From Candidatus Saccharimonadota bacterium (GTDB lineage: Bacteria; Patescibacteriota; Saccharimonadia; Saccharimonadales; DTSZ01), in assembly GCA_012965045.1 (NCBI GenBank), contig DTSZ01000001.1, positions 92,937 through 156,936 on the forward strand: 64,000 nucleotides of DNA, read 5' to 3'. A program made the translations under genes and the position numbers. The notes beneath the pieces are model-generated. The model saw nothing but the letters and a program-made list of their open reading frames with translations, was not told the DNA's origin and searched no databases. How positions within the stretch are numbered: the stretch's first letter is position 1; each line of letters starts with the position of its first letter. Shown here piece after piece: positions 5,212-57,402 of this stretch.

Positions 5212-5603
5212 TGAAGAAAGTCCTGATTTTAGAGGATAATAGGCAATTTGTCTCATTACTCACTGGCTATTTAGAAGAGCTGGCAACAAACCAAAGTACT
5301 CACATACAAATTGATGTGTATGAGTCTGAGCGCGATGTACTTGAGATAGTCAACCCGAACGCGACAAACTGGGATGCGATTTTATTAGACTATTACGCCG
5401 TTGATGGGACATTCTTTAAGCTCGACTTTGACTTAATTGACGCACACAAAGTGATAGCTATGTCTTCCGAGCCGTCCAAAAATGCCATAGCCAGAAGGTA
5501 TGGAGTAACGCATACTGTGCAAAAGGATTATCGAAAACTAGGTACGAGCGCATACGCGATTGTACAAATATTAAAAGGAGTACTTTTTGGCAAAGAAGAA
5601 TAA
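5211..5603 (+). CDS. stand-alone receiver-like (REC) domain protein, divergent
   Basis: 130 aa. It has an LILEDN acidic pair, an AILLDYY putative phospho-acceptor Asp, and IAMSS. No output domain is present. Confidence 0.45.
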   Translation: MKKVLILEDNRQFVSLLTGYLEELATNQSTHIQIDVYESERDVLEIVNPNATNWDAILLDYYAVDGTFFKLDFDLIDAHKVIAMSSEPSKNAIARRYGVTHTVQKDYRKLGTSAYAIVQILKGVLFGKEE

Positions 5604-13200: not shown

Positions 13201-13417
13201 GGGTCGCATGGTATATGTAGAAGCCCAAAGCGATAAAGATTTGGTGCGCGAATACATTCCGAGCCACGTAGAAAAAGATCAGTTAAAGCTGTTAATTGAC
13301 GTAGTGTGGGGCAAGATTCAGGCGTTCGAGTGGCCAGAGGTATCTGGATACGAGGAGTCTTTTGAAGGAATGAAGCAATTCATTACTGATTTAATTGGAG
13401 AAAATCAAATAATATGA
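10220..13417 (+). CDS. UvrD/PcrA-type SF1 helicase fused to a C-terminal PD-(D/E)XK nuclease (AddA/RecB-like)
   Basis: Walker A AGPGTGKT, DEFQDT (motif II), VGDDDQAIYRFQGA, TENYRS, TVHKSKGLEFD and YVAATRAK. The C-terminal nuclease motif is GQIDRLD ... VVVDYKTG. Confidence 0.8.
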   Translation: MSDNFTNRYNGLNAKQKEAVDYIDGALMVLAGPGTGKTELLSMRAANILQTTDTHPSSILCLTFTDKASLNMQQRLQEIIGFTARNIQVRTFHSFSADVINQNPEYFFNHALVEPADDVIQLQIINNILEELPFQSRLTSKYGGKFTQIKRIIRSIDQAKKAGLTPEKLRSVAALNIAYIDSISDRFDQVFSKRFNKNTANEIHQFLDEIPTLETKTHPIRGYDEVLHSSLAAVLVEADENNTTKPLSAWKSAHSQVVDGKRVLKDVKRSLWWLELADVYQQYQSALEEQGYYDFSDMVLSVITELEQNETLRHAVAEQFNYVMVDEFQDTNDAQMRLVNLIVELQANNPNIMVVGDDDQAIYRFQGAEISNAQNFLDTFTHTKIISLTENYRSSSKLINSSQTIASKILHRLSAQLDIPKKIEAKFNTTTDKVEHKSYSTLDVSYVSIAQSIEHDYKAGLSVAVLARNHSSLAKIAAVLDECNVPLQYDRQSNVFELPGIQLLINVLKTVASIQKGDIQQSTYLLRTILPSDVVGLDSKFLWSFSIRNRYEDWVSAALASENEDLLSFVEWLVELAKLERNTSISILLEYILGLKPLGSYVSPLKKLVDSAEDFEAMQLLSGVQKLRSLASSSLKSSSNNLQSFVELLRSYEDLDLQISNELTFLNGDSFVNLMTVHKSKGLEFDSVFVLDAVDSIWSPSRSRNKTPINLEMMQEYGEDPDDYARLLYVAATRAKSRLVFVSYKTDAAGKAQLPSPLLADIPPTDITSTKQVLHQSLLRANTWPRLNHTDEKLLLKPLLTNYELSVTHLINFLDIENGGPQLFIERNLLRLPDVKSPHMGYGTAIHAALRLLQLQFNKQSVQLDLVLDEFDSVLETQHLEQPAFIKYRQKGRELLEKYVKNPDLLTLIEGAQPERSIKAVKIGDATIGGQIDRLDELQSELVVVDYKTGSPLAPELGAKTKTHGIKAFKHRLQLIFYSLLLEDYAAQKHKSIKGRMVYVEAQSDKDLVREYIPSHVEKDQLKLLIDVVWGKIQAFEWPEVSGYEESFEGMKQFITDLIGENQII

Positions 13418-33193: not shown

Positions 33194-33658
33194 ATGGATT
33201 ACAACAGCGATTATTTACGCAGATCCTGCACGGATCTTTTTGAAGGCCTTATTTTTGGCGATGAGGTAATGGTGTCTAGTAATAGCAATGCTTTAGTGGA
33301 CGCTGGACTCCCTTTGGCGGAATATACCGGCATAGAAGAAGAATCCTTTGATGAAGACCATTTTCGGTTTGCTATTTTGTGTGCGGCATCAAGCAAATTA
33401 ATTTCAGACTGGTCGTATTTTAGATTTGTTGCGAATAGTCAGGGCTTTTCTGACGACTGGTTACGGTTTTTAAAGCGGCCGGAACATTACTTAGTAGATA
33501 ATACCGATTTAGACGACAAACAGATTCAAGAAATTACAGACTATATTAAAGATACCTTCCGTGAACAGTTCCCCGATCAGCATAATCGGTCGATCGAAGC
33601 TCTAAAGCGCTTTGGTCGTTCAATATCAAGTATTTTTGAGAAAACTAGCGCCGAATAG
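33194..33658 (+). CDS. hypothetical protein
   Basis: 154-aa ORF with no recognised motif. It is divergent from topA and its 3' end overlaps the dprA 3' end by 14 nt. Confidence 0.35.
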   Translation: MDYNSDYLRRSCTDLFEGLIFGDEVMVSSNSNALVDAGLPLAEYTGIEEESFDEDHFRFAILCAASSKLISDWSYFRFVANSQGFSDDWLRFLKRPEHYLVDNTDLDDKQIQEITDYIKDTFREQFPDQHNRSIEALKRFGRSISSIFEKTSAE

Positions 33659-34514
33659 CCCACTGATTGTTACCGAGCGGTCGAATATGACCTTCGATTT
33701 CTAGCATGGTAAGTGCTTGCTGAAAGACAGCGGTTTCTAGGTTAGCCCGTTGCTGTAGTTCATGCGCGTCGTGGCTCACCCCGTCTTTAATTAACTGGTA
33801 TATGACCGTTTGCGTGTCATCTGTGAAAATTGGCAAGCGAATGTCTTCGGTCGGATCGCTATGGTCAAGGTTTAAAACCTCCAGAATATCTATCGCTTTT
33901 GTAACTGGATGTGCGCCAGCCTTAATGAGCTGATTTGTTCCGTAGCTCAGTGGTGCCGTTATCGACCCGGGCACAGCAAATACTTCTTTTCCTTGCTCTA
34001 GAGCATGACGAGCGGTGTTTAATGAGCCGCTCCGTTGGGCGGCTTCCACAACGACCACAGCTCGGCTTAATCCAGAAATAATACGGTTTCGTTCTAGAAA
34101 CTGATGACCTAAATGTGGTGTGCCATTGCTATATTCGCTTACTAAAGCGCCTCCAGAAGTGACTATTGTGATTGCTAACTGGCGATGAGCAGGTGGTGAA
34201 ATAATATCCACACCGCCACCAAGCACCGCTACGGTGTAGCCATTGCTTTCTAGGGCGATTTTGTGCGCCCATGAGTCTATGCCAAAGGCAAGACCACTAA
34301 CAATGCCTACACCGTGACGCACAAGTTCTTTCGTAATAAGTTCTGTTGCTTGTTTACCGTAATTTGTAGCCTTCCTGCTACCAACAACAGCAACTAATGG
34401 CATTTTTGATTTTAAATTGCCGTGTACATACAGTTTGCTAACAGGCTGTGGAATATGTTTGAGGCTGCTCGGAAAGCTTTCTGAGTTGGCTGAAATTGAA
34501 GTTATTGTGCTCAT
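33645..34514 (-). CDS. dprA: DNA-processing protein DprA (Smf)
   Basis: Rossmann-like DprA core with VVGSRKAT, SGLAFGIDSWAHK and VVVEAAQRSGSL, plus a C-terminal winged-helix-like extension. Confidence 0.9.
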   Translation of the reverse strand: MSTITSISANSESFPSSLKHIPQPVSKLYVHGNLKSKMPLVAVVGSRKATNYGKQATELITKELVRHGVGIVSGLAFGIDSWAHKIALESNGYTVAVLGGGVDIISPPAHRQLAITIVTSGGALVSEYSNGTPHLGHQFLERNRIISGLSRAVVVVEAAQRSGSLNTARHALEQGKEVFAVPGSITAPLSYGTNQLIKAGAHPVTKAIDILEVLNLDHSDPTEDIRLPIFTDDTQTVIYQLIKDGVSHDAHELQQRANLETAVFQQALTMLEIEGHIRPLGNNQWAIRR

Positions 34515-42972: not shown

Positions 42973-43047
42973 GGCCCCATCGTCTAACGGTTAGGACACC
43001 AGATTCTCAATCTGGTAATAGGAGTTCGATTCTCCTTGGGGTCACCA
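42973..43047 (+). tRNA. tRNA-Glu (anticodon CUC), CCA encoded
   Basis: Hand-folded cloverleaf: acceptor GGCCCCA/TGGGGTC, D arm GTCT/GGAC, anticodon stem CCAGA/TCTGG with loop TTCTCAA, T arm AGGAG-TTCGATT-CTCCT, and discriminator A followed by CCA. Confidence 0.9.
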
Positions 43048-43102: not shown

Positions 43103-43250
43103 CGAACTCCGTATAAGCGGCCATTAGGCTGCGCGGAGTTCAGATAACAACGAGCACGCGCAGAAGCTACCTCCTAGTTTCGAGCATGTGAGGCAGTTAT
43201 ACAAAGTATTCTCCCCTGCCTACCGGCAGGCAGGTTGGGGTCACCAATTT
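43103..43250 (+). repeat. repeat unit A (uninterrupted copy), ending in a 13-nt copy of the tRNA-Glu 3' end
   Basis: It contains GAACTCCG..CGGAGTTCAGATAACAAC, CATGTGAGGCAGTTATACAAAGTATTC, a CCTGCC/GGCAGG hairpin, and then TTGGGGTCACCAA (43235..43247). That last segment is identical to tRNA positions 43036..43048. A second terminator-like hairpin follows. Confidence 0.65.
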
Positions 43251-43655
43251 AAGATCCGCTCGAAAGGGCGGTTTTTAAATTGGTAAGCTTTAATGCGAAA
43301 CGAACTCCGCAAAATGCGTTATTACCTCTTTTATTACTTGAGAAACAGTAATTGTATAAAAAAGGATGCTGGCTGCGAAACAAAGACAAAGTGAAGCAGT
43401 GTGTAGTTTCTTTACTATCCCATAAGTTAGCCAATGATTTTACCGATTTTAGTGTAAGGATACGCAAGTATCTTGTGTGAGAAAATGGCGTTAGAGGTTG
43501 TGAAATCTGGAGAAAAATCGTAAGAAGAGTAGCCCAGTAACAATATCGGTTGAATAGCGAACCGACTTTTAATGCCTTCTGGGTACATTTAGAGACGGCT
43601 AGAGCGATTTTTAGACTATAATCTAAGGTAATATCCTTATGATATTATTTATGAT

Positions 43656-44852
43656 ATGGATGAAAATAAAAACAATGAAAATAAAATAATCCAGTCATTT
43701 GATCCACAGTCGAATACTCAGCAATCCGTTGAAGTTAATCAGTCTACTAATACTCCTCTTTCAAGCCCAGCCTCAAGCAGTCAATTTAACCAGTATCAGA
43801 ATAATAAACCTTCAAAATGGCGTTATTTCTTCGTAGTATTAGGAATATTGCAAGCATTGGGTGTTGCAGTATTTTTCTTAATAATGTTTTGGGCTATACA
43901 GCAAGCTAAGGTAGGAGTTTCAGGTACTGAATATGTTGGCTTAATTCTCTTCGTGACTCTTGTACCTGCCGTTGGAGTAATTGCTTTAATAAATCTAATA
44001 AGCTTACCGATATACATGAGGAAATTCAAACCACGTGGTAAGGGGTTCTTGCTGGCTGTCGTTTCGCTGATCATATCAGTAATATTATTTATGTATGGAG
44101 CATACAGTGTATACCAATTAAGAGTTGCGGCTCCTAGACAGTATGAAGAGTTCAGTGAGCAACTGAAGAAAGATTCGGAACAAAGGGAACAGGAGTTCGC
44201 CGTAGATAATGCAAATCCAGAAATAACTAAAGAAGAAGCAATAACATTAATACAAAGCTGTAAGTTAAAGGGTTTCTACTATACAAAGGAAACCGAAAAA
44301 GAGCATGGGACATCACCTGCTATATCAGCAACTGGTATTGTTCTGACTAAAATAGATGGAGAACCTTACAGAATCAGTATCGCTGATAGTCTAGTAGACG
44401 AACTGGTACCTATTGCTCGAGAAGCTCAAAAAACGTGTGGCGGTCCTCAATTTTGGCATGACGGTAGGTACGAACAGTTCAAAGATGGTAGTTGGTATTT
44501 CAAGGGTGAGGTTGTGAATAGTACGCAATCTGGTAAAACTAAAGAAGAAGCTATTAGTTTCATGCAGGATTGTAAGGCGGACTATTTTGTTGGCTACACT
44601 GATATAGGACTTGTGAAGGACAGTAATACTAAATCGTGGCTGGAGAAAGCCGAACAGTCAAGTAGCGGTATAGAAATATCTGAAGGACCAACGTCTTATG
44701 TATTCGCATCAACGTCAATGACTACAGAACTACAGGATACGGCAAGGCAGTTTCGACAGTCTTGTTACAACACTAAAAAGCTGTATGTAACAATAGATGA
44801 CTGGATAGAGACTGAATATCCAGCGGGCCAATGGACTAGAGTAAAACAATAA
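43656..44852 (+). CDS. hypothetical membrane protein with duplicated C-terminal Cys-containing domain
   Basis: 398 aa with a Q/N/S-rich N-terminus and 4 TM helices. Two related soluble repeats follow (TKEEAITLIQSCKLKGFYYT.. and TKEEAISFMQDCKADYFVGYT..). Confidence 0.5.
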   Translation: MDENKNNENKIIQSFDPQSNTQQSVEVNQSTNTPLSSPASSSQFNQYQNNKPSKWRYFFVVLGILQALGVAVFFLIMFWAIQQAKVGVSGTEYVGLILFVTLVPAVGVIALINLISLPIYMRKFKPRGKGFLLAVVSLIISVILFMYGAYSVYQLRVAAPRQYEEFSEQLKKDSEQREQEFAVDNANPEITKEEAITLIQSCKLKGFYYTKETEKEHGTSPAISATGIVLTKIDGEPYRISIADSLVDELVPIAREAQKTCGGPQFWHDGRYEQFKDGSWYFKGEVVNSTQSGKTKEEAISFMQDCKADYFVGYTDIGLVKDSNTKSWLEKAEQSSSGIEISEGPTSYVFASTSMTTELQDTARQFRQSCYNTKKLYVTIDDWIETEYPAGQWTRVKQ

Positions 44853-45054: not shown

Positions 45055-45105
45055 AAATCTCGAACTCTAGAGTTCAGATAGCAACAACCACGCACAGAAC
45101 CAAAT
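45055..45105 (+). repeat. repeat unit B, left part
   Basis: GAACTCTAGAGTTCAGATAGCAACAACCACGCACAGAACC aligns with 43122..43166 of unit A. Confidence 0.55.
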
Positions 45106-45197: not shown

Positions 45198-45560
45198 TTG
45201 AAAGCTCATAAACTGTCCAAATGGGGCCTGTTCTTTATTAGCATGAGTGTCTTGCAACTTTTAGGAATTATTTCTTACTATGTTACGGGGTTTTTATTTA
45301 AGCAACAGTTTGGGTCTGACAATTCATCAACCCCGTTTAACACCGACGATTTATTTATCTTGATGTTTGGAACTATTGTCCCGGCTGTGTTTTATATTTC
45401 ACTAATGAATATAGTTGGGCTTCTGATTTATGAAAGTAAACATAAATCAGAAGGTATCCGATCTGTTGCGATTATGCTTTCTTTTATTTTTTCTTTAATT
45501 CTCTGTTTATTGGCATCTCTCTTTTTGCGCGAGACGAGGTTTTTGTTTTTCTTCCCCTAA
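45198..45560 (+). CDS. small membrane protein, truncated paralogue of the TM region of 43656..44852
   Basis: TTG start, 120 aa. It shares SKW..FF..LQ.LG...VPAV...N...L.IY..K.K..G....S.IL with the larger protein and lacks the soluble repeats. Confidence 0.45.
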   Translation: MKAHKLSKWGLFFISMSVLQLLGIISYYVTGFLFKQQFGSDNSSTPFNTDDLFILMFGTIVPAVFYISLMNIVGLLIYESKHKSEGIRSVAIMLSFIFSLILCLLASLFLRETRFLFFFP

Positions 45561-45576
45561 GGACGCACAGTCTTGC

Positions 45577-45683
45577 GAACGATCAACCATGTGAGGCAGT
45601 TCTACAAAGTATTCCCCATCTAGATTTCAGGTATTCAAGCAAGCAGCACGATGCCTGCCTGTCGCCAGGCGGGTCGGGGTCTT
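45577..45683 (+). repeat. repeat unit B, right part, ending in a degenerate tRNA-3'-end echo
   Basis: CATGTGAGGCAGTTCTACAAAGTATTCCCC (45588..) aligns with 43185.. of unit A. It is followed by the hairpin CCTGCCTG/CAGGCGGG and TCGGGGTC (45674..45681). Confidence 0.55.
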
Positions 45684-45701: not shown

Positions 45702-47297
45702 CTATAGTTCCATCGCATCCGAATATTCAGGTAGCAGCTCCTTCTCATCTTCTACTTTTTTGATCACTAGTTTGGTTACATGCCAGTTCGGCAAATGCCC
45801 CAAATGTACCGTATTACAATGTAGTCCATCATAGTTAAATTGCTCTGTAATGAACGACGAAGAAAACTTACTCTCTTCTTCGGGATAGAAATATGCCACT
45901 GATTCTTCCATCTGGCTGTCGGTTTCGTTAAACAACGATCGAAATGGTTTTTCGGTAGAAAATTCAGTGGGCGCATATAGATCGTTATTGCTAAGAGAAA
46001 GGTCGGTGCGATCCATTTGAAATAGCGGCATATTTAAATATGCAGTAATTAATGCGTCTTCTAACAGCTCATTATCGCCTATGATGTGCTCTTTGATTTC
46101 TTTGAAACTGTGTCCTTTTTCATCGTAGCGCAAGTCTTGAACATTAAATTTTTTTAACCGAAACGAAATAGCCTTTTCTACACACAGCATTTCTAGTGCT
46201 CTTGTCGAAACATCTAGCTGCCTGGCTTGTTGGTCTAGGTAGGTAAGATAATCCTCTTCGTATTTTTTTAATTCTATCGTGTGTGTGGTATCAGGGTTTA
46301 AATACTTTTCAAGGTATGCGTTGTCTATATAGCGGTACTCTGTCTGCAACACTTTAATTGTTAAATCCAAGTCAAGTAAAAGAACCACGCCGATATCTGC
46401 ATAGCGCTCGAAGTACATCTTCATTTTGAAGATTTTTAGTATGTCCTTCGCTTCCAGTCGGTCAATATCATCAAAAACTACATAGAGCTTTTTTGGACTG
46501 CTAGTACTTGTTTTTTGTGCGGCATTAAATGCAACGGGATTAGAGTGTAGATTTTTTTTAAACAGTTCAATGCCATATTTGTGTTTAATAAAGCTATTCA
46601 AGTAGTCTTCTATATCATCGTGTTCATCTACGCCAGTCACGTCTTTCATTTCTTTAAATTCTTGGAGCAGCAGCCTTATATAGTCGTCAAAATCATTCAA
46701 AATCACAGGACAGATATACAGTAGTTTTGGTTTTTCTGTTAATTTTTCGAGTCCTTCGACTGTATATATAAGCTTTTCGAACTTATTTTTTTCTTCGTCT
46801 TTTGCCCACAGCAGGTTATTCACAATAGCCAATAGAGTAGTTTTGCCAGTGCGGTGCTTGCCATCTATCAAAATAGTCGACTTGGATTGCGGACTATCTG
46901 TATTTGTTAGCTCATCAAGTAGTGCCTTTAACGCTCGATAGTGCATGAAGCTATTACGGTATTTTTCTAGAAAGTTGCTTGCTTCCTTATCTCCAACTTC
47001 ATAAATAGAAAAAATATTGGTATTGGCTGTAGTGCTCCAATCATTTTTTTTAGCTCTCTTTCTTGCAGTATTATAGGAGGAATCTGATTTTGTAAAATAA
47101 AATAAAACAGCCGCGGATGAAATCACTACTAGCACGGTAGCTATGCAGTATGGCAAACTATTAAAATTTATAGCTGGAAAAAAGGAACTAATTACACTAA
47201 GTGATTGAAGTACCTTGGCCAACAGAAAAGTCGATACACCACTGATAATTGCAATGTAGAGGATGATGCGGCCAAGGAATTTTAATTTAAACTTCAT
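45702..47297 (-). CDS. KAP-family P-loop NTPase with N-terminal TM helices
   Basis: Walker A DGKHRTGKTTLL and the KAP-type Walker B LYVVFDDIDRL. Two N-terminal TM segments are present. Confidence 0.7.
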   Translation of the reverse strand: MKFKLKFLGRIILYIAIISGVSTFLLAKVLQSLSVISSFFPAINFNSLPYCIATVLVVISSAAVLFYFTKSDSSYNTARKRAKKNDWSTTANTNIFSIYEVGDKEASNFLEKYRNSFMHYRALKALLDELTNTDSPQSKSTILIDGKHRTGKTTLLAIVNNLLWAKDEEKNKFEKLIYTVEGLEKLTEKPKLLYICPVILNDFDDYIRLLLQEFKEMKDVTGVDEHDDIEDYLNSFIKHKYGIELFKKNLHSNPVAFNAAQKTSTSSPKKLYVVFDDIDRLEAKDILKIFKMKMYFERYADIGVVLLLDLDLTIKVLQTEYRYIDNAYLEKYLNPDTTHTIELKKYEEDYLTYLDQQARQLDVSTRALEMLCVEKAISFRLKKFNVQDLRYDEKGHSFKEIKEHIIGDNELLEDALITAYLNMPLFQMDRTDLSLSNNDLYAPTEFSTEKPFRSLFNETDSQMEESVAYFYPEEESKFSSSFITEQFNYDGLHCNTVHLGHLPNWHVTKLVIKKVEDEKELLPEYSDAMEL

Positions 47298-48084: not shown

Positions 48085-49263
48085 CTATAGCGCCTTCCAC
48101 TCCTTCAACTCCTCTGGCAAAAAACCCTCTGGGTGCTTAAAGCCGGCTTCCCATTTTGTGCCTTTGCTATAGCCAAGGTCTTTCATGAGCTCTGTCGGAG
48201 CGTTACGAATATGGAGTGGTACTTGGGCGGTTGGATTGTCTTTGGCCGTTTGCAGAGCGTTTTTCATGGCTGTTGTGACATCACGCGACTTGTCGCAGCG
48301 CGCAAGTACTAAGGCGCAGTGGAACAGATTATACTGACACTCTGGCATGCCGATTCGCTCCACCGCCATAAACGTACTGACAGCTACATTAAGCACGCCA
48401 TTTACCGCCAAGCCGACGTCTTCGCTGGCGAATATAACCATTCTGCGGGCAATAAACTTAGGGTCCTCCCCTGCTTGTAGCATTCGCGCTAAATAAAAAC
48501 TGGCGGCATTTTCGTCGCTGCCACGCAATGATTTTATAAATGCGCTAATAGTGTTGTAGTGGTCCTCGCCCTTTTTGTCGTAGCCAGGTAATTTGTTTTG
48601 AGCTGCAGTTTGAATTGTATCGGGCGCTATAACGCCCTTTCCAGCTATTTGTAGGGCTAATTCGAGTGTATTTAGAGCTGTGCGGGCATCGCCGTGGGAG
48701 AGCCGTATTAAAGTAGTGACGCTTTTTGACGGTAGTTGTTTAACTGTTAGTTTAAGCTCTTTTTTTGCTCGTTGGATTATTTGTTTTAAAGATTGTTCTG
48801 ACAGCTGTTTGAGTACAACTACTTTACTGCGGGACAACAAGGCGTTTATTACTTCAAAGCTCGGGTTTTCGGTTGTGGCTCCGATTAAGGTGATAACACC
48901 ACTTTCCACATACGGTAAAAAGGCGTCTTGTTGGGCTTTATTGAATCGATGGATTTCGTCTACAAACAACACAGTACGGTTTTGCAGGCGGTTATTTTGT
49001 TTAGCGCGTTCGATTACCTTCATTACGTCTGCTTTGCCGCTCGCGACAGCACTGAGTTCTATAAAGTCAGCTTTGGTTTCGGTGGCTAAAATTCGTGCGA
49101 GAGTTGTCTTACCGGTACCTGGTGGCCCCCAAAAAATAAGGCTGGTGAGCTTTTTTGTTTTAGCCAATTCAAAAAGCAGCCCACCCTTTTTGGTTAGGTG
49201 TTCTTGCCCAATTACGTCAGCTAATTTTTGTGGACGCAGCTTGTCTGCAAGTGGTTGGATCAT
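48085..49263 (-). CDS. rarA: replication-associated recombination protein A (AAA+ ATPase RarA/MgsA)
   Basis: MIQPLADKLRP.. N-terminus, Walker A GPPGTGKTT, Walker B FVDEIHRFNK, and a MgsA C-terminal helical domain. ATG 49263 was preferred, with TATAAT ending 10 nt upstream. Confidence 0.9.
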   Translation of the reverse strand: MIQPLADKLRPQKLADVIGQEHLTKKGGLLFELAKTKKLTSLIFWGPPGTGKTTLARILATETKADFIELSAVASGKADVMKVIERAKQNNRLQNRTVLFVDEIHRFNKAQQDAFLPYVESGVITLIGATTENPSFEVINALLSRSKVVVLKQLSEQSLKQIIQRAKKELKLTVKQLPSKSVTTLIRLSHGDARTALNTLELALQIAGKGVIAPDTIQTAAQNKLPGYDKKGEDHYNTISAFIKSLRGSDENAASFYLARMLQAGEDPKFIARRMVIFASEDVGLAVNGVLNVAVSTFMAVERIGMPECQYNLFHCALVLARCDKSRDVTTAMKNALQTAKDNPTAQVPLHIRNAPTELMKDLGYSKGTKWEAGFKHPEGFLPEELKEWKAL

Positions 49264-49479
49264 CTTAAGTTTAATTATACTATCTGCTGCTTTCATAGCG
49301 TTGTTAACTTCTCATATAGGTGGGTTTATCGTTAATATTCTAGATGCTTTAATTTAAGAAGGATATTTTGATGAAGCGCGTATTGACACGTTCAACGTAA
49401 CAGTCTTAAGCATCTTTCTAAGTTTTCTCTAAGCTGTCCAGATGCACGAGGGGCGGTGATTGATTTAATAAGTAATAGC

Positions 49480-50280
49480 CTAGCCTCCACAAACGCTGTT
49501 TTCCAGTTCAATGAAATTGATGCGAGCAGACTCAATCTGCTCTGCAGTAGGCTCGGTGTCTTGTATGAATATAACCACATCTCCGATAAGGTTTTGTATG
49601 CGTTTTAGGTCAGACTCATCTGGTAGGTCTTCTTGTGCGTGAGCCACAGGAAAAAATCTGTTCAGGAAGCTAGTTTCCGGAGGATTAAAGCTACTTTGGT
49701 CCCCGAAAAAGGTCTCTAAGTCATCATTTAAGAAAGCATCTATGTCCCTGAGTTCTAATCCTGAATCAGTAGCAGCGTAGACCCACATCGAGTCTTTTAA
49801 TGTGTTGTCGAGTAAATCCCCATGAGCGGGTACTTTCTCCCAATCCGTTAGTGAATTTTGCTTGTACCCAAGCGTGCCATCGACACCACCAACGCTATTT
49901 CCATAGTAGCCAAGTAGTTGTGCGCCCGTTACGTCTTTCCAGTGAAGATGCACAAATTGGTCTAAATTATCATGAAAATGGATAGGTTGCTTTGGGAATT
50001 CAGCGCTACATACTCCCTTCTTGTATTCTTGCTGAAACTTATCATCACTAAAGTCGATTGCTGTACCATCAACGACATACTGCATTCGTAAGTGTGCGTG
50101 TTCTAGTTTTGGGCTTCTGAAATTTACGGGTGAGTTGAAAAACAAAAAACCGTACACGCCGCCAACGATTAGAAACGCAGCAAATAACCCAATAACCAGC
50201 GCTTTAACTTTTGAATTTTTGTTAGAACTTGTCTCTTTATTAGCCTCTTCGGTGTTTAGTTTTTGTGAATTGTCTTCCAT
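49480..50280 (-). CDS. hypothetical membrane-anchored protein with His-rich motifs
   Basis: 266 aa with a single N-terminal TM and His clusters (LEHAHLRM, IHFHDNLDQFVHLHW). It ends in CGG and overlaps the upstream BNR gene by 25 nt. Confidence 0.4.
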   Translation of the reverse strand: MEDNSQKLNTEEANKETSSNKNSKVKALVIGLFAAFLIVGGVYGFLFFNSPVNFRSPKLEHAHLRMQYVVDGTAIDFSDDKFQQEYKKGVCSAEFPKQPIHFHDNLDQFVHLHWKDVTGAQLLGYYGNSVGGVDGTLGYKQNSLTDWEKVPAHGDLLDNTLKDSMWVYAATDSGLELRDIDAFLNDDLETFFGDQSSFNPPETSFLNRFFPVAHAQEDLPDESDLKRIQNLIGDVVIFIQDTEPTAEQIESARINFIELENSVCGG

Positions 50281-51149
50281 GTGGCTCCTTCGTTAGTTGT
50301 ACTATGTATTGATAGATCCTGCAGCAATGCAAACACTGTGTTTGATTCGTCACCAGCGAAGTCAATGTAAAGAACAGGCACACTGCTTTCGCTCGGTGAC
50401 GTCATTTGGTTCCAGCTCTCTCCATCATCAATACTCCTCAGCAGGCCAGATTCAGCAAATGATGCTATACGCTCGCTTGGGTTGTTGGGATTGATTGCAA
50501 ATGCAATAACAGCTGATTCTCCGTAGTATTTTTCCCAACTATCACCTGCATCGGTACTAACAAAAATACCCGTTGATGTAGATGCATACACCGTATCTTG
50601 ATCTTCTACGTCAGCAGTTAGAGAAATAATATTTGTATTGGCTGGTCCATTAGTAATTTCCCATGTTACACCGCCGTCAATACTGCGCTGAAAGGTTCCA
50701 GTATATGAACCATAGAGATACAGCGGATTAGCGTCGCTAATTGTCATTGCATGAAAATCAACTGGCCCTTGAGCTCCATCTGAAATTTTTTCAAATGTTT
50801 GTCCGCCGTCGGTAGATTTTAAGACACCAAGATTACCACCAGTCTTGGGGTGCCCACTTGCGTACATTACCTTAGGATCTGCAGGATGAGCCGCAAACCC
50901 CATAAAATCATGTTGGGCCTCACTTATTCTTTCTAGCGTCGCTTCATCAAGAAGTCTATAGAGGCCATTGTGATTTGCTATATAGAGGCTTTCTTTGTCG
51001 CTGAGATCAACCGAAAAGCCGTGTGCGTCAGCAAGTGTGTCTACTGCAACTGGGCTGAATGCTTCTGGCTCTGTGTCGCCAGACATAATTAAAACTAAAC
51101 CTCCGAGCATTAAGAACACTACTAGCAGTACTGTATTCTTCATATTCAT
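50256..51149 (-). CDS. secreted BNR/Asp-box repeat beta-propeller protein
   Basis: N-terminal signal/anchor. Five Asp-box-like repeats are present (STDGGQTF, SIDGGVTW, STDAGDSW, SIDDGESW, TTNEGATW). Confidence 0.65.
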   Translation of the reverse strand: MNMKNTVLLVVFLMLGGLVLIMSGDTEPEAFSPVAVDTLADAHGFSVDLSDKESLYIANHNGLYRLLDEATLERISEAQHDFMGFAAHPADPKVMYASGHPKTGGNLGVLKSTDGGQTFEKISDGAQGPVDFHAMTISDANPLYLYGSYTGTFQRSIDGGVTWEITNGPANTNIISLTADVEDQDTVYASTSTGIFVSTDAGDSWEKYYGESAVIAFAINPNNPSERIASFAESGLLRSIDDGESWNQMTSPSESSVPVLYIDFAGDESNTVFALLQDLSIHSTTNEGATWKTIHKN

Positions 51150-51152
51150 CCT

Positions 51153-53240
51153 TTATATATTAATTCTGCGAAGCAATTGTGCGTTAAGCGCCACGATAAC
51201 TGTAGATCCAGACATCAGTGCCGCGCCCACCGCAGGTGATAAAACAAACCCGGTAAATGCCAGTGCACCTCCGGCAAGTGGAACGGCTGCCAAGTTATAG
51301 AATGTTGCCCAGATAAGATTCTGTACCATTTTGCTATAAGTTGCTTTACTCAGTTTAATTACCGATGTGACAGCCCGTGGATCATTTCTGGCCAAGACTA
51401 CCCCTGCTGATTCGATAGCAACATCAGTGCCCGCACCGATTGCTATACCAACATCAGCTTGGGTGAGCGCTGGTGCATCGTTCACACCATCGCCGACCAT
51501 TGCAACTCGTTTTCCACCAGATTGGATGTGTTTAATGATGTCGGCTTTATCGCCCGGGAGCACCTCGGCATGCACCGTATCGATACCAACACTTTTTGCA
51601 ACCCAATCGGCTACAGCTTGGCTGTCCCCAGTAAGCATTCCGACTTTAATTCCTTGGCTATGCAAATAACGAATAGCCTCTTTAGATTCCTCACGAATGA
51701 CATCAGCAATAAGAAATACTGCAAGAACCTTCGTGTCCTCTACAAGATAAACTGCACTTTGAGCGTTTTTTGCAGCTTTATTAGATGCTTCTTTAAATGT
51801 TCCAGACAGCTTTACTCCACGTTCCTTCAGAAGTTGAGGTCCACCGATATAGTATTTCTTGGAATCGACTTTGGCACTTACACCTTTGCCAGATATTGAG
51901 GTAAAGTCGGTGGCTTTCTTGGGTCGAATCTTTTCTTCGTCTGCGTAGTCAGTAATTGCTTTGGCGAGTGGATGCTCGGAGTCTGCTTCAATTCCAGCTG
52001 CTACGGAAACAGCATGTTTTTTGTCCTCGGCAACAACTTCGACTACTCCGTGCTCTGCTTTTGTAAGTGTGCCGGTTTTATCAAACACGACAACATCTAT
52101 CTTTCGTGCCTGCTCAAGAGCGAGCCGATCCCGGACTAATATTCCAGAGTTTGCAGCTTTTGTTGTCGATATCGCAGTTACTAAAGGTATAGCGAGCCCG
52201 AGTGCATGAGGGCATGCGATAATCAGCACTGCAACAACTCGCTCGATAGTATAGTCTAATCCGCTCGTCCCCAGGATCGCCCAAGAAACTGCAGTTATCA
52301 AAGCTGCTATAAGTGCGTAGTAGAACAAATACTTAGCGGCAGAATCAGCAAGTAGCTGTGTTTTAGATTTTGAATTCTGAGCGTCTGCTACGAGCTTCAT
52401 TATCCCAGACAAAACAGTGTCATCACCGAGCTCTGTAACCTGTACTGTGAGTGAGCCTTCAGAATTGATTGCACCTGCGACGACTTTATCGCCAACATCT
52501 TTTTCTACCAGCTTAGATTCGCCGGTGATGAATGATTCATCTATGCCAGATTTACCTTTTATAATTTCACCATCAACAGGGATACTTGCACCCGGACGCA
52601 CCAGCACTTTGTCGCCAACTTTTAACTCTGCAACAGATACAGTCTTGGTACCGTCTTTAGTAGCGCGCTCTGCAGTGTCTGGGAGTAGTTTTGCAAGTTC
52701 GCCTAGAGCTCCTTGCGCGCTATCAATAGATGCCATTTCAAGCCAGTGTCCTAGAAGCATGATAGTGATAAGCGTAGCGAGCTCCCACCAGAAATCCATG
52801 CCATCAACAAGCCCAAATGTAACAGCTGCGCTATAAAGGAAAGAAACAGAAATTGCCATGCTGATTAACGTCATCATGCCGGGTGTTCTAATGCCAATTT
52901 CGGCACGTGCACTTTTTAGGAATACTAAGCCTCCATAGATTAAGATAACCAATGAAAGCAACGCAGGAATATAGGTAGAACCACTAAATTCTACTGATTT
53001 AAATGATAAGAACGTTTGAATTGAAGGAGAAAAATACAGCACAGGTATCGTTAAGAAAAGTGACACCCAAAATTTTCGCTTAAATATGTTTGGGCTATGT
53101 CCAGCATGTTTATCGTGATTTTGTGTATGTGATACGTAGCCTTTATTTTGTTTTTCCAGCGCCATCTGGCATTTTGGGCAAGTACCTTTTTTATCCTGGG
53201 TTATTTCTGGATGCATCGGACAGGTGTAGTAATGGTCCAT
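51153..53240 (-). CDS. heavy-metal-translocating P1B-type ATPase, CPH (CopB-like) subtype
   Basis: The N-terminus has CPMHPE...CPKCQM and a His-rich stretch. TM motif CPH (IIACPHALGL), phosphorylation site DKTGTLT, TGD and GDGVNDAP are all present. Confidence 0.9.
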   Translation of the reverse strand: MDHYYTCPMHPEITQDKKGTCPKCQMALEKQNKGYVSHTQNHDKHAGHSPNIFKRKFWVSLFLTIPVLYFSPSIQTFLSFKSVEFSGSTYIPALLSLVILIYGGLVFLKSARAEIGIRTPGMMTLISMAISVSFLYSAAVTFGLVDGMDFWWELATLITIMLLGHWLEMASIDSAQGALGELAKLLPDTAERATKDGTKTVSVAELKVGDKVLVRPGASIPVDGEIIKGKSGIDESFITGESKLVEKDVGDKVVAGAINSEGSLTVQVTELGDDTVLSGIMKLVADAQNSKSKTQLLADSAAKYLFYYALIAALITAVSWAILGTSGLDYTIERVVAVLIIACPHALGLAIPLVTAISTTKAANSGILVRDRLALEQARKIDVVVFDKTGTLTKAEHGVVEVVAEDKKHAVSVAAGIEADSEHPLAKAITDYADEEKIRPKKATDFTSISGKGVSAKVDSKKYYIGGPQLLKERGVKLSGTFKEASNKAAKNAQSAVYLVEDTKVLAVFLIADVIREESKEAIRYLHSQGIKVGMLTGDSQAVADWVAKSVGIDTVHAEVLPGDKADIIKHIQSGGKRVAMVGDGVNDAPALTQADVGIAIGAGTDVAIESAGVVLARNDPRAVTSVIKLSKATYSKMVQNLIWATFYNLAAVPLAGGALAFTGFVLSPAVGAALMSGSTVIVALNAQLLRRINI

Positions 53241-53252
53241 GTTGTTTCCTTT

Positions 53253-53582
53253 TTATTGGTTACACTTGCATTTATCGTCACAAGAGACACACGACTCACA
53301 CGAGCAATAGTTTTCGATGTGCGAGTCTATCAATTTCAAAAGCGGCGCAATCGTATCCTGATTTAGAGCGTATATGCGTTCTTTGCCTTGTTGAGTGACA
53401 CTCACGAAGTGGCATGACAAAAGTCTATGCATGTGGCGGGATACGAGTGATTGTTCAAGCGAGGTGTTTTCTGCAATATCATTCACTGAACTATGTTCAC
53501 ATTGCAGTAAATACTGAACAATACTTAGGCGGTTTTCATTGGCAAGCGTTCCAAAAAATCTCTCATATGACGTATCTAACAT
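53253..53582 (-). CDS. ArsR/SmtB-family metalloregulator with C-terminal Cys-rich tail
   Basis: wHTH (LANENRLSIVQYLL...VNDIAENTSLEQSLVSRHMHRL) and the tail CSCESCVSCDDKCKCNQ. Confidence 0.8.
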   Translation of the reverse strand: MLDTSYERFFGTLANENRLSIVQYLLQCEHSSVNDIAENTSLEQSLVSRHMHRLLSCHFVSVTQQGKERIYALNQDTIAPLLKLIDSHIENYCSCESCVSCDDKCKCNQ

Positions 53583-53626
53583 ATGTGTATGGTATCATAG
53601 GATATCAATTAAACAAGCAAGTTTTC

Positions 53627-54181
53627 ATGAAAACAATCCAATTTATTGCAAAAGAAATTGCAGACAGACCCTATGGTTTTTTGGGAATCTGGATAGGAAC
53701 CCTATGGATCTTTCAGTATGCAACTAGTTTTAGTTTGTTTTCCCATATACTTACAAACAATGCGCTTAATATTTTTGAAAAATTGAGCTTTTTTTTAGAC
53801 TCAATAACTAATTTATTCAGGTATAGTAGCGACCCGCGCGCTGCATCTATTATTGTCTTTAGTTTTATCGCTGCAATTAATTTTTTTCTTATGGTTCGAG
53901 CCTATCGAAACAAACAAGCCATTAAAAATAAACGCGCAGGGACCGCCAGTACTCTCGGCGCCCTCATCGGGACCCACTGTGTAGCATGTGGAGGCTCATT
54001 GCTTGCCCCTCTGGTTACAACAATAGCCGGCAGTGGAGCTTATTTCAGTTCATCGCGAATCCAAACAGGCATATTTATAAGTGTATTTATTAATGCAATC
54101 GCTATCGTATTTATAACAAAAGCCACTATTAAGATGGCAAAAAAACACATGATAATGAACGAAATTGCACAGCAAGTATGA
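53627..54181 (+). CDS. hypothetical 4-TM membrane protein with intramembrane CxxC
   Basis: ATG 53627 was preferred because the ORF-track start at 53414 runs antisense through arsR. It has the motif GTHCVACGGSLLAPL and is divergent from arsR across a 44-bp spacer. Confidence 0.5.
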   Translation: MKTIQFIAKEIADRPYGFLGIWIGTLWIFQYATSFSLFSHILTNNALNIFEKLSFFLDSITNLFRYSSDPRAASIIVFSFIAAINFFLMVRAYRNKQAIKNKRAGTASTLGALIGTHCVACGGSLLAPLVTTIAGSGAYFSSSRIQTGIFISVFINAIAIVFITKATIKMAKKHMIMNEIAQQV

Positions 54182-54654
54182 GATATAAAAGTTATCACTC
54201 GCAAACTCCAAAAATTGTTTTAGCAGCTTCGATAGTTTCAATTGGCTTAGCAAACTTATACGTATATACAGAGATGGACTTTGAAAGCAACGAAGTTAGC
54301 GTGACTGTTAAAGAAAAAGAGACAATATCCACAAAATTAATCGAGACTTCAGAAGCAGCAGTGCTTGACGAAGAAAAGCCACAAGAAGTTACATTTAGCG
54401 TTGAGTACACAGTTCCCGGTAATAAGCGCAATGCGCTTGATGTAAAATTAATACTAGATAATAAAATTATTATTTCTGTTGAAACTGTCCATAGATCGAT
54501 AGATGCAGCTTCAGCAGGCCACATCAGAATTTTTGATAAGGGTGTTCAAGAGCAAGCGACAGGAAAGGCTACTGGAGAAATTGAGGATATTCTGATATCT
54601 AAAGCTAGCTTAACCACGAAAGCGTTTAAGGCTGGTCTTCGTGACGCCATATAG
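54178..54654 (+). CDS. hypothetical membrane-anchored protein; possible divergent FMN-binding-domain-like ApbE substrate
   Basis: 158 aa with an N-terminal TM. Two imperfect matches to the D..SGAT flavinylation context are present (SIDAASAGH; DILISKASLTTKAF). It lies immediately upstream of apbE. Confidence 0.3.
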   Translation: MRYKSYHSQTPKIVLAASIVSIGLANLYVYTEMDFESNEVSVTVKEKETISTKLIETSEAAVLDEEKPQEVTFSVEYTVPGNKRNALDVKLILDNKIIISVETVHRSIDAASAGHIRIFDKGVQEQATGKATGEIEDILISKASLTTKAFKAGLRDAI

Positions 54655-54668
54655 TTGATTGAGTATGT

Positions 54669-55475
54669 ATGCTTACGTTTGAGGCACTCGGCACCGGCTG
54701 GAAAATTAAAGCAAATGATTTTGACGTTGTTGCCGAAAAGAACAAAATCCTCTCCGTCGTTACGGAGTTCGAAAACAATTACAGTCGCTTTAAAAAAACT
54801 TCTTATGTTGGAAGGTTGAATACTGGATCATCAATCAACCAGCCCCCAAGTGAACTCTACGAAATGCTGGAATTTGCTTACCGGGCTTACCAGAACACAC
54901 AGGGAATGTTTAATATTTTTATCGGCGCTACGCTCGAAAACAGTGGCTATGGACTCAAAAACAACAATAAGTTCAGTAATGCATTCAGTGGAGCTATTTC
55001 GTTCTCTGAACAAGAGATAAAACTTACTGGTGAGCATAGTATTGATCTCGGCGGTTTTGGTAAGGGGTGGCTTATAGATAAATTAGCTTTAATTCTGCAA
55101 GATAAATCTGATAACTTTGTGATCAATGGCGGCGGAGATATGTATGTTAAGGGTAAAAAAATAGTACAAATTGAAAGTACTGGACATAAGGTGGGGGTAG
55201 AAGACCAAGCCGTTGCATCTAGTAGTGCTGCGGCTCGGGCATGGAGGTTTGGAGGCGTACAACACACTCACATTCCCAGTGCTCAATCCGAGCACCAAGC
55301 AAGTGTTATTGCAGGTGATGCGAAGACCGCAGATATGCTAGCAACAGTTAGTTTGCTAAGTAATAATGCACAACTAAAATCACTCGAGAAATCATATAAA
55401 GCGAAAATCATGCTTGTGCAAGGCAGTGATATTATCTACTGTTCAAAAGCTGAATTCTTCAATATGAATATTTGA
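54669..55475 (+). CDS. apbE: FAD:protein FMN transferase (ApbE family)
   Basis: FEALGTGWKI start, DLGGFGKGWLID, and INGGGDMYV. These are the characteristic ApbE motifs. Confidence 0.7.
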   Translation: MLTFEALGTGWKIKANDFDVVAEKNKILSVVTEFENNYSRFKKTSYVGRLNTGSSINQPPSELYEMLEFAYRAYQNTQGMFNIFIGATLENSGYGLKNNNKFSNAFSGAISFSEQEIKLTGEHSIDLGGFGKGWLIDKLALILQDKSDNFVINGGGDMYVKGKKIVQIESTGHKVGVEDQAVASSSAAARAWRFGGVQHTHIPSAQSEHQASVIAGDAKTADMLATVSLLSNNAQLKSLEKSYKAKIMLVQGSDIIYCSKAEFFNMNI

Positions 55476-56720
55476 AGCTTTTACACCTTGGTTTTTTAAG
55501 TCATCTCTCAATATTTTCATCATTTGGCTTGGTCCACAAATAATATATTGTGCACTCTGCCAATCTGGGACGTTTTCTTTGATTTTTGAAGCTGTTATTC
55601 GATCTGCCCTGCTGCCTGCTTTTGAGCTCTTCTCTTCACTATAGAATTCATGCAAATTTTGGCCTAGTTCTCTGCGGAGACTAGTTATGAAGTTTGCATT
55701 TTCTCTCTGTCGGTTGGCATAGAAGAGCTGTTTATTTTTTAACTTTGGATTAAAAAGATGCATCAAAAAAGGCGTTATGCCAATACCTCCGGCAATAAAT
55801 ACAATTGTCTCACCAGAATTTAGGTTTGCGACTTGTGTAAATGTCCCGTACGGACCATCAATATACATGGTTGCGCCCTGTTTGACCCTCGTTAACTCCC
55901 CGGTGTATCTACCAAACACCTTAAAGGCTACAAATATATTCCCACTTTTTTTGCTATAGTGAGCAACGCTAAACGGGTGGGATTCGCTCGTTATGGAGCG
56001 GCGAAGATATACGTACTGCCCTGGCTTAATTCGTAACTTTTTATTTTGTGGCGACAGTTCGAGCAGCACTACATGTCCATTTAACTTCGTTAGCTTAATG
56101 ACTGTGTACTTAGTTCTCCCTAAAGACACAAACATTCGAAGTCTTACGACGGTAAATACTCCAAATACGGCAGCGAGTGAATACCAGTATGCAAAGACAG
56201 CATGATTAATAAAGCTAGTTCCAATACTTGGTGCGTGGATAAAGACAAACGGCAGAGAGATATAGGCAAGATAGTGAATATACTTCCACAACCTGTAACT
56301 CAAGAATCTCCTAAGCAGAACGGATGTGAGCCATATAGTTAGGATGAAAAAGAGGGCAATTCTTCCGTAGCTCACGCTTGTCTCTAGTCCGCCAGAAAAG
56401 TTTAGTGCAAATGAATATGTCCACGACTTTGCATAAAGAATCGTAGCTGCAACTGGATGTGCAAAGATTAGCAGACTCCCCCAGACACCAAACAGTACAT
56501 GCAGGCGCGTGACCCACGGCAATTCGTTAAAATATAATCCTGAAACACTACGGGTGCCAAGAATGTATTGCCAAAGAATTAGCACTGTGCCAATGAATCC
56601 AGAGAAAGTGGAAATATATAGCCACGTCAACTTTGGCGTTCCAGCTAGAATAAATGTTGGTAGAATCGACAGCAATATTAGGCAAAATAAAAGTATCTTC
56701 TTGTTTTTTTCGTTTTGCAT
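55443..56720 (-). CDS. NOX/FRE-family transmembrane oxidoreductase (ferric-reductase haem domain plus FAD/NAD(P)H-binding domain)
   Basis: Six TM helices carry two His pairs, 14 and 13 residues apart (LHV..FAHP; IHY..FIHAP). FAD motif HPFS, NAD(P)H motif GGIGITP, and a C-terminal CGP are present. Confidence 0.8.
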   Translation of the reverse strand: MQNEKNKKILLFCLILLSILPTFILAGTPKLTWLYISTFSGFIGTVLILWQYILGTRSVSGLYFNELPWVTRLHVLFGVWGSLLIFAHPVAATILYAKSWTYSFALNFSGGLETSVSYGRIALFFILTIWLTSVLLRRFLSYRLWKYIHYLAYISLPFVFIHAPSIGTSFINHAVFAYWYSLAAVFGVFTVVRLRMFVSLGRTKYTVIKLTKLNGHVVLLELSPQNKKLRIKPGQYVYLRRSITSESHPFSVAHYSKKSGNIFVAFKVFGRYTGELTRVKQGATMYIDGPYGTFTQVANLNSGETIVFIAGGIGITPFLMHLFNPKLKNKQLFYANRQRENANFITSLRRELGQNLHEFYSEEKSSKAGSRADRITASKIKENVPDWQSAQYIICGPSQMMKILRDDLKNQGVKASNIHIEEFSF

Positions 56721-56860
56721 TTTAGTATAGTATCAGTTTTCTTGGTTGCTGGTTTGTTCTATGTGATTTATTAGGCTACCTATTTTTGCTGTAAATTGAT
56801 CGAAGATTTCATGCCTACTAACTGCTTAATTTTGGCATGTTTATACAGAAATTCATCTAG

Positions 56861-56935
56861 CTACGTAAGGTGTTCTTGGCCAATTACCTCGGCAAGTTTA
56901 TTGGGACGTAGTTTGTCGGCCAGCGGTTGATTCAT
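56861..56935 (-). pseudogene. displaced 5' fragment of rarA (24 codons plus stop)
   Basis: It encodes MNQPLADKLRPNKLAEVIGQEHLT*, which matches rarA MIQPLADKLRPQKLADVIGQEHLT at 21 of 24 positions. A TATACT box ends 7 nt upstream. Confidence 0.75.
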
Positions 56936-56951
56936 ATTATTTAGTATACTG

Positions 56952-57137
56952 GTGTTGATGTTTAAGAACACAATTCATAAAACCAACTGCAAGCGTAAGC
57001 GCCGGTTTGACAACTTAGAGTCGGCCAATGCAGCTTTAGACCTCATAAACCCTAAGCGAAAACCCAAAAAGCCCAACCGGGTCTACAAGTGCAATCAATG
57101 CTCTGGCTACCACCTGTCGTCAAAAAAATCTATTTAA
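56952..57137 (+). CDS. small basic protein with C-terminal CxxC (zinc-ribbon-like)
   Basis: 61 aa, GTG start. The pattern KRRFDNLESANAAL...YKCNQCSGYHLSS recurs in small bacterial and phage proteins of unknown function. Confidence 0.4.
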   Translation: MLMFKNTIHKTNCKRKRRFDNLESANAALDLINPKRKPKKPNRVYKCNQCSGYHLSSKKSI

Positions 57138-57402
57138 TAATAATCCGAACAGCTGTGATTGGTTTTGTAACTGCAGAGTTAATAATTTCTAACAATTCTA
57201 CCTGTTGAAACCGCAGCTCTGTAGCTTTTGCAGCAGAATTTGCAGTGACTAAAATTGACCGATCGGTGTTAATTTTCAGCAATTTAACAGATGTGTCGTG
57301 TAGTCGGCTTAATTCAGTTTGGATAATTTCAAGCTCGGACTTTTTGGAGTCAAAATCAAGCTGCTTGGCTTTCTTTAACAACAAGTCGCTAATAGGGTCC
57401 AT
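57130..57402 (-). CDS. DUF721/DciA-like small protein
   Basis: 90 aa. The pattern SILVTANSAAKATELRFQQVELLEIIN resembles the DUF721 core. It is the last gene of the gltX-to-RR minus-strand string. Confidence 0.35.
   Translation of the reverse strand: MDPISDLLLKKAKQLDFDSKKSELEIIQTELSRLHDTSVKLLKINTDRSILVTANSAAKATELRFQQVELLEIINSAVTKPITAVRIIIK

Follow-up and report, generated by a model that had tools for sequence, protein, structure and literature searches.

Tn5253 carries an attachment (att) site of about 84 bp that comprises the upstream region and the first 20 nt of rbgA, and its integration, immediately 3' of a conserved block of 11 bp, leaves the coding sequence of the target restored (PMC8571831). 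Cis-mobilizable elements (CIMEs) are decayed integrative and conjugative elements (ICEs) or integrative and mobilizable elements (IMEs) which retain attL and attR and have lost their integration and transfer genes (PMC5704250). Further, displacement resembling homology-facilitated illegitimate recombination (HFIR) has been proposed as the origin of stranded gene fragments at type VI secretion system (T6SS) and Rhs loci (PMC5361080). Here, we describe a locus that can be compared with each of these systems, in a 64-kb stretch of DNA (hereafter the window) from a Saccharibacteria (TM7) genome recovered from Lau Basin and Mariner hydrothermal-vent metagenomes, where a 7.6-kb segment with metal-export and flavin-redox genes lies between two copies of the start of rarA.

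Mobile elements and routes of gene gain are poorly charted in Saccharibacteria and in the Candidate Phyla Radiation (CPR) at large, whose genomes are tiny and hold few recognisable recombinases. The rarA locus would provide a dated and directional example of gene gain, in which an imported start saved the target gene. Contigs from the same population (L081-L085, up to 930 kb) are 99.8-100% identical to the window and all of them contain the island, with no strain-level polymorphism. The lineage is thinly represented in databases: a metagenome scan with a degenerate rarA-start pattern gave no matches and missed even the source contig.

Two copies of the rarA start

The gene and the two repeat copies on which the argument turns, the second of these copies being the displaced native start and the first the imported one, are located as follows.

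48085 to 49263, minus strand: full-length rarA (MgsA/RarA AAA+ ATPase; Pfam MgsA_C, AAA_assoc_2, AAA and RuvB_N), with codons 1-24 as the imported copy
49193 to 49281, minus strand: direct-repeat copy R (attR-like), an island-supplied TATAAT hexamer and rarA codons 1-24, ending in an 11-nt core at 49196-49206
56864 to 56950, minus strand: direct-repeat copy L (attL-like), the native TATACT hexamer and the displaced native rarA codons 1-24

A preliminary description of this DNA had read 48085-49263 on the minus strand as full-length rarA, and the resident gene is indeed an intact open reading frame (ORF) of 392 aa with the full RarA/MgsA domain set. It had also pointed to a 75-nt fragment at 56861-56935 that encodes the start of rarA followed by a stop, and this reading holds: on the minus strand, 7.6 kb upstream of the full gene, the displaced fragment runs from an ATG at 56935 through 23 further codons to codon 24 at 56864 and then ends in TAG (56863-56861). 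When 56700-57100 was compared with the whole window by BLASTN, the one non-self match paired 56865-56950 with 49193-49281 (75% over 89 columns, E 1.2e-11), the second-best match reaching only E 0.25, and TBLASTN with the N-terminus of the resident RarA recovered the fragment as well (E 1.4e-10). Without gaps, 49193-49267 and 56865-56939 are 77% identical over 75 nt, and in frame the two rarA starts agree at 55/72 nt and in 21/24 amino acids; the similarity that had first been counted by hand (about 53 of 68 bases) is significant. The longest identity tract between the two starts is the 11-nt run AGGTGTTCTTG (plus strand; 49196-49206 and 56868-56878), which reads CAAGAACACCT on the rarA strand and encodes QEHL. 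It is the identical core previously noticed at the inner edge of the repeat, and the similarity of the two copies ends 4-7 nt past it.

Automatic callers place the rarA start at 49296 (403 aa), and the NCBI record begins the gene at an ATC codon at 49260 (391 aa), while homologs (start MQPLADK) and the rarA of a related species on contig L086, described below, back a start at 49263 or 49260. Both window starts have an extra second codon (ATC and AAT, respectively), of which there is none in L086.

Promoter-like hexamers precede both ATGs, as the preliminary description had noted, with TATAAT 10 nt 5' of the resident ATG (49273-49278) and TATACT 7 nt 5' of the displaced ATG (56943-56948). The insert may also have supplied a promoter, as was further suggested, but consensus promoter scans of both junctions scored no higher than shuffled controls, and we treat the hexamers as conserved sequence and as putative promoters only. 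TATAAT or TATACT also lies 3-10 nt 5' of the ATG at L086 rarA (about 130-135) and at two ferric-reductase-like (FRE) genes, one in the island (56724-56729) and one in L087, a second genome described below (about 5371-5376). Hexamers so near their ATGs suggest that transcripts in these organisms may be leaderless or nearly so.

Origin of the two starts

Altogether, 17 differences separate the two starts, 14 of them at third codon positions, with 11 codons changed synonymously and 3 non-synonymously. Divergence amounts to 0.58 at third positions, which is near saturation, and to 0.06 (3/48) at positions 1 and 2; the third-position excess is significant against a uniform spread (P = 5e-5) and against a model in which one copy evolves neutrally (P = 0.0014). 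Because both copies were kept as working rarA starts nearly throughout, their history requires two genomes, and because their divergence is almost all synonymous, the resident start is a xenolog and the fragment the displaced native start, which turned into a pseudogene only recently. As the displaced start has not yet decayed, the acquisition of the metal-export and redox module is likewise recent.

The same polarity emerges from a related genome. Among 5.8 billion proteins, the only intermediate relative of the window RarA is P0002 (82% amino-acid identity), encoded on the 1.8-kb contig L086. Positions 1-210 of L086 align with window positions 57056-56864 (E 7e-16) and run on into an intact rarA; the 141 nt 5' of the L086 gene match the DNA upstream of the fragment, whereas against the DNA upstream of the resident rarA the similarity begins only about 17 nt before the ATG. 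L086 represents an empty site from a related species, and because its flank matches the fragment side, the fragment is the displaced native start, with resident codons 1-24 having come with the insert. A search for such an unoccupied site had been proposed as a check on the insertion, and L086 supplies it, in that its flank, including the start of the gene at 56958-57137, runs directly into intact rarA. Jointly with the synonymous divergence, this supports the earlier proposal of an insertion into the rarA 5' end that brought a replacement start.

Two genes mark the native flank beyond the displaced fragment.

56958 to 57137, plus strand: orf61, encoding a small conserved CxxC protein; native flank marker, divergent from rarA, with PHROG matches of unknown function
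57130 to 57402, minus strand: DciA-like gene of the native flank (Pfam DciA, 24.1 bits)

The product of orf61 matches the translated L086 flank at 69% over 32 aa (E 1e-16). Because the second flank gene is DciA-like (helicase-loader family), rarA would natively belong to a small cluster of replication-related genes. Only 22 nt separate the orf61 start from the ATG of native rarA, and a candidate promoter for orf61 (hexamers TTGTCG-16-TATTAT) falls inside the displaced fragment (56913-56958), scoring no higher than shuffled controls; expression of orf61 may need the retained rarA fragment.

The three starts are about equidistant (58, 56, and 54 of 69 nt), the fragment being slightly nearer L086 (58/69) than the resident copy (54/69). 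Sliding identity to L086 and the GC content of third codon positions (GC3; p 0.42) were uninformative as to a breakpoint inside rarA, and because third positions are saturated, the extent of donor sequence past codon 24 cannot be read from either measure. No circular form of the island and no same-species empty site were found. Among GTDB species representatives, the nearest rarA is 68% identical, with synteny not kept and no second fragment, a distance too great for an empty-site comparison; a protein search with the DciA-like flank gene returned a self-match only, and an FRE alignment against metagenomes gave one irrelevant match (26%). In a phage database, some Ralstonia inovirus records matched rarA at their ends but were rejected because they contain a full-length host rarA, and the remaining matches were rejected as phage clamp-loader or RarA-like genes.

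Island content

As far as its sequence tells, the segment at 49282-56863 is a horizontally acquired genomic island with metal-export and flavin-redox genes, and it is composed as follows.

49282 to 49479, minus strand: right-hand non-coding spacer, with no terminator-like site between i1 and rarA
49480 to 50280, minus strand: i1, membrane-anchored protein of 266 aa, function unknown, always paired with a BNR gene
50256 to 51149, minus strand: i2, BNR/Sortilin-type beta-propeller, similar to the F510_1955 family
51153 to 53240, minus strand: i3, copper-type P1B heavy-metal ATPase with an N-terminal HMBD (Pfam E1-E2_ATPase, Hydrolase and HMBD; TIGR01511, 586 bits)
53253 to 53582, minus strand: i4, ArsR/SmtB metalloregulator (NF033788)
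53627 to 54181, plus strand: i5, multi-pass membrane protein of 184 aa, function unknown, 72% identical to a 184-aa L087 gene, with no family match
54178 to 54654, plus strand: i6, exported protein of 158 aa, function unknown
54669 to 55475, plus strand: i7, ApbE-family FAD:protein FMN transferase (Pfam ApbE, E 5e-28)
55443 to 56720, minus strand: i8 (FRE), ferric-reductase-like membrane flavoprotein (Ferric_reduct, FAD_binding_8 and NAD_binding_1)
56721 to 56863, minus strand: left-hand non-coding spacer, starting with the TAG of the fragment

The P1B ATPase with its metal-binding domain and the metalloregulator are traits of metal-homeostasis islands, and the cargo would make up a metal-efflux and flavin-based redox module, of a kind that would suit a vent rich in metals. 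FRE has the same orientation as the displaced rarA start and follows it, downstream, at a distance of 143 nt; no minus-strand terminator was found in 56600-57200, i.e., none between the stranded start and FRE, and terminator scans scored no higher than shuffled controls. Transcription may have been rewired on both sides of the island, at FRE as well as at rarA.

The i1 protein has no Pfam, NCBIfam, or PHROG match, and only 11 homologs were found. Its pairing with the BNR propeller is conserved in several CPR contigs (L088, L090, L093, and L094); in L090 the pair occurs with ApbE and a 155-aa gene, and in L088 it adjoins DUF3105 and DUF305 genes, which hints that i1 may be part of a metal-related envelope system. 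Across the i1-homolog contexts on L088-L095, the module is present in part, and neither rarA nor a tRNA nor an integrase adjoins it.

The same module in a second genome

The nearest i1 homolog (72%) is encoded on L087, an 860-kb scaffold from another, distant Saccharibacterium, where the module is colinear with that of the window all the way between the start of FRE and the stop of i1 (68-75% nucleotide identity). It occupies a different locus, beside tRNA-Glu(ttc) (11163-11237) and about 4.6 kb beyond the rarA 3' end, and it lies between 100-nt direct repeats (5210-5309 and 10885-10984) that are 86% identical and open with a motif resembling the tRNA-Glu 3' end. The repeat layout is alike in both genomes, with a fuzzy edge, an identical block, and a sharp edge, the L087 blocks measuring 25 and 18 nt. 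Rfam searches found only tRNA-Glu in both genomes, and the L087 repeat unit matches no family. The L087 copA (8853-9128) is an in-frame 91-aa remnant consisting of the first 68 and last 31 residues; the module is apparently decaying in L087 and intact in the window.

Synteny between the two genomes covers a pseudouridine synthase, a response regulator, a PAS kinase, and tRNA-Glu, and then a 229-aa gene and rarA. The syntenic core proteins are 22-54% identical, except for a receiver domain (77%), against 57-84% (median 72%) for the seven proteins of the module. Compositional contrast with the flanks had been named as a further test of foreign origin, and the outcome differs between the two hosts: in L087 the contrast is strong, with the module at a GC content of 0.407 vs 0.497 for its neighbours (p 3e-4) and a GC3 of 0.361 vs 0.510 (p 2e-5), whereas in the window it is modest, with a GC content at gene level of 0.410 vs 0.451 (p 0.0009) and tetranucleotide z scores of at most 2.7. 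Because the module keeps a GC content of about 41% in both hosts and exceeds core-gene conservation, it moved more recently than the hosts diverged, and its presence in a distant second genome, where other gene-end repeats enclose it, shows that it travels as a unit. Hence, these comparisons identify the cargo as horizontally mobile.

How the island may have entered rarA

The reading that we favor, with about an even chance of being correct, is that of an integrative island, site-specific for the rarA 5' end and bringing a replacement start with it, which is either decayed or non-autonomous. The att site of the element would have carried a mimic of the rarA start, from about -19 to +72, and site-specific recombination would have taken place at the short conserved core CAAGAACACCT in the rarA 5' end. 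The chromosome's own first 24 codons would then have been stranded on the far side as attL (56864-56950), with the element copy, attR (49193-49281), fused in frame to codon 25 onward, such that rarA stays intact. The recombinase would have been lost since, leaving a remnant of a larger, CIME-like integrative element, or would act in trans on a non-autonomous island. From the layout we infer the site-specific nature of the joining, the position of the crossover, and the loss or trans-action of the recombinase.

Several features expected of att sites are present, namely an 89-nt imperfect repeat with an 11-nt core near a sharp edge, a restored target coding sequence, and an unoccupied site in L086. 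As in CIMEs, attL- and attR-like repeats are kept and integration and transfer genes are absent, with the repeats as putative true att sites. A recombinase that works on a short core fits the locus because identity between the copies is unbroken over 11 nt at most.

A number of results weigh against this reading. Profile searches of all island ORFs and the flanks (Pfam, NCBIfam, and PHROGs) found no integrase, recombinase, transposase, excisionase, or relaxase family, and a Pfam search of all window ORFs of at least 150 aa found none either; the preliminary description had seen no integrase, recombinase, or transposase in the segment, and the check that it advised, for cryptic recombinases among the island ORFs, came back empty. 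No recombinase family occurs among the called genes of the 20-kb L087 locus, and our searches found neither a parent nor a helper element with an integrase. A second copy of the gene's own start is absent from all 78 other rarA loci, which indicates that the rarA start is not a recurrent target, and viral and provirus contigs held no rarA-start mimic, element att copy, island end spacer, or relative of FRE or i1. The island ends show no inverted repeats, arm-type repeats, or shared motifs above chance. Further, the 11-nt core is conserved in L086 too, so its identity between the copies could reflect protein conservation alone, and in both genomes the module is found no more than about 10 kb from rarA and tRNA-Glu, which a targeting model would not predict. 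As for transfer, no transfer or mobilisation genes (relaxase, oriT, type IV secretion system, or virion) are found in the island, and the VirD4/TrwB-like ATPase at 26372-28984 lies 20 kb off, with no demonstrated tie to it.

Natural transformation offers the main rival route, which we regard as possible and on the whole less likely. Here, the donor would be a Saccharibacterium with the module immediately upstream of its own rarA; a fragment with the module and the rarA start would have arrived from it, anchored in rarA by homology, and the far end would have been joined illegitimately after codon 24, as in HFIR, stranding the native start. Such an event makes a recombinase unnecessary, and none is present in the window; Saccharibacteria are naturally competent via ComEC and recombine linear DNA (PMC10633639), and DprA is encoded in the window (33645-34514), where ComEC was not seen. 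The tRNA-Glu-rarA neighbourhood is syntenic between the window and L087 with variable content, and the module is there in both, as expected of a recombination hotspot, and the orphan gene ends at T6SS and Rhs loci provide a parallel (PMC5361080). Had the joint formed further upstream, orf61 and the DciA-like gene would have been lost, and only joints inside the rarA start may be viable. However, RecA-driven exchange needs about 25-35 bp, and transformation and HFIR fade at 15-23% divergence in B. subtilis, whereas the anchor required here would differ at about 22-28% of positions and offer no identity tract above 11-17 nt, beyond the range detectable in that species (PMC6382021). Between the two copies, one of which is all the donor sequence that can be seen, divergence is 22-23% and the maximum identity tract 11 nt, and the longest tract between the window rarA and the L086 rarA is 17 nt; no donor genome was found. 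HFIR is also orders of magnitude rarer than homologous recombination (PMC5361080), the required donor arrangement is absent from all module and rarA contexts examined, and the 100-nt repeats round the L087 module would need a second similar accident.

Cargo modules might also pass between the genomes of competent, recombinase-poor CPR bacteria as integrase-free cassettes, an improbable explanation in which a mimic of a conserved gene end, about 90-100 nt long (the rarA start in the window and a tRNA-like 3' end in L087), would be the sole homing device. A host function, in place of a recombinase of the element, would insert such cassettes, more than 20% divergence would be tolerated, and the target would be regenerated. 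Island mobility would then have a new mode, distinct from the decay of a classical element.

Still less probable is a larger replacement, in which a single donor gave everything from tRNA-Glu (43047) to the end of the module, rarA included, anchored at the tRNA, with an illegitimate joint in the native start and a wholly foreign rarA. The block at 43-47.5 kb is the most atypical in the window (z up to 4.6), scars of the tRNA-Glu 3' end occur at 43235-43285, genes downstream of L086 rarA have no counterpart in the window, and no breakpoint can be located inside rarA. Yet rarA and its convergent 229-aa neighbour are also adjacent in the distant L087, which makes the pair look ancestral, the block, rarA, and the module differ in GC content (about 0.37, 0.465, and 0.41) in a way that fits one donor poorly, and the window RarA is 82% identical to that of L086, whose lineage has the native flank in common with the window.

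A local duplication or rearrangement, e.g., a tandem duplication of rarA and the module followed by deletions that left the fragment as a decaying paralogous copy, is very improbable. The preliminary description had named an old local duplication as the alternative, and the swapped order of the blocks in L087 (the rarA block, then the module) could be reached by a duplication-deletion path, but a dead 72-nt remnant could not have kept 21/24 residues, the frame, and only 3/48 changes with 58% of third positions altered (P = 0.0014). Moreover, the fragment is nearer L086 (58/69) than the resident copy (54/69), and the module is compositionally distinct and horizontally mobile. Finally, insertion of a transposon or insertion sequence with target-site duplication would account for direct repeats flanking the segment, but it can practically be dismissed, with no transposase, no terminal inverted repeats, and a repeat of about 89 nt whose 23% divergence and coding-type pattern misfit a duplication made at insertion.

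The tRNA-Glu neighbourhood and other genes of the window

The tRNA-Glu(ctc) gene of the window (42973-43047) has its 3' end repeated about 190 nt further on (TTGGGGTCACCAA, 43235-43247), and a separate terminator-like hairpin accompanies this second copy. Between 43 and 47.5 kb, the tetranucleotide z score rises to 4.6 and the GC content is 0.38-0.40; the block contains a KAP-family P-loop NTPase (45702-47297) and no integrase, and it looks like a set of old integration scars at tRNA-Glu. Short repeats pair 43136-43165 with 45070-45099 (87%) and 43180-43214 with 45583-45617 (89%). The pair is contiguous near the tRNA and is split by about 480 nt at the second site, where a 120-aa membrane ORF (45198-45560) intervenes, as if a small cassette had been inserted into the repeat unit there. 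Within a 398-aa membrane protein (43656-44852), an internal 40-nt repeat (44225-44264 and 44537-44576; 75% identical, 312 nt apart) is taken as indicating a duplicated domain. Elsewhere, the window encodes a VirD4/TrwB-like coupling ATPase (26372-28984), DprA (33645-34514), an AddA-like helicase-nuclease (10220-13417), and RmuC (3599-4657), which represent uptake, transfer, and recombination functions that bear on the entry of foreign DNA.

Comparison with known systems

What the locus adds depends on how its integrase-free state arose. Were that state functional, competent CPR bacteria would seem to have a route of insertion that has gone unrecognised; were it the product of decay, it would be an ordinary but clean 5'-end-targeting integration, in a new phylum and with a new target, rarA.

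Islands that target tRNA genes resemble the L087 locus, where the same cargo sits beside tRNA-Glu between repeats with a motif like the tRNA-Glu 3' end. The window has similar scars at its own tRNA-Glu, but its island is in rarA and has no integrase. The HFIR events proposed at T6SS and Rhs loci share with the island an incoming copy of a conserved gene end, an orphaned resident end beside the cargo, and no need for a recombinase; they concern the 3' ends of polymorphic toxin genes and a well-matched anchor, whereas here a 5' end is involved and the putative anchor is 22-28% diverged.

CIMEs are closer in content, as they too are cargo-only, with att-like direct repeats at a gene end and no integrase. 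They are known by the att sites that they share with a cognate ICE or IME, and the collections searched contained no cognate specific for the rarA start. SXT, at prfC, likewise inserts site-specifically in the 5' end of a conserved housekeeping gene and leaves its function intact, but the SXT family is defined by the near-identical tyrosine recombinase Int, while the island has neither Int nor a conjugation module and belongs to an unrelated phylum.

The comparison with Tn5253 is the most detailed, as its anatomy at rbgA agrees with that of the island in nearly every point and offers a direct precedent. Like the island, Tn5253 has an imperfect att copy (17-84 nt) of the upstream region and first codons of its target, an 11-bp block ends the repeat, the coding sequence is restored, and attL is native and attR element-borne (PMC8571831). 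Unlike the island, Tn5253 measures 64 kb, transmits itself, encodes an integrase and conjugation genes, and forms detectable circles; the island is 7.6 kb of cargo only, has no recombinase, targets rarA in a CPR host, and is known from sequence alone. Coding sequence is duplicated over 72 nt in the island vs 20 nt in Tn5253. The type of event is thus a known one, and what is new at this locus is the target gene rarA, the host phylum, and the cargo-only state.

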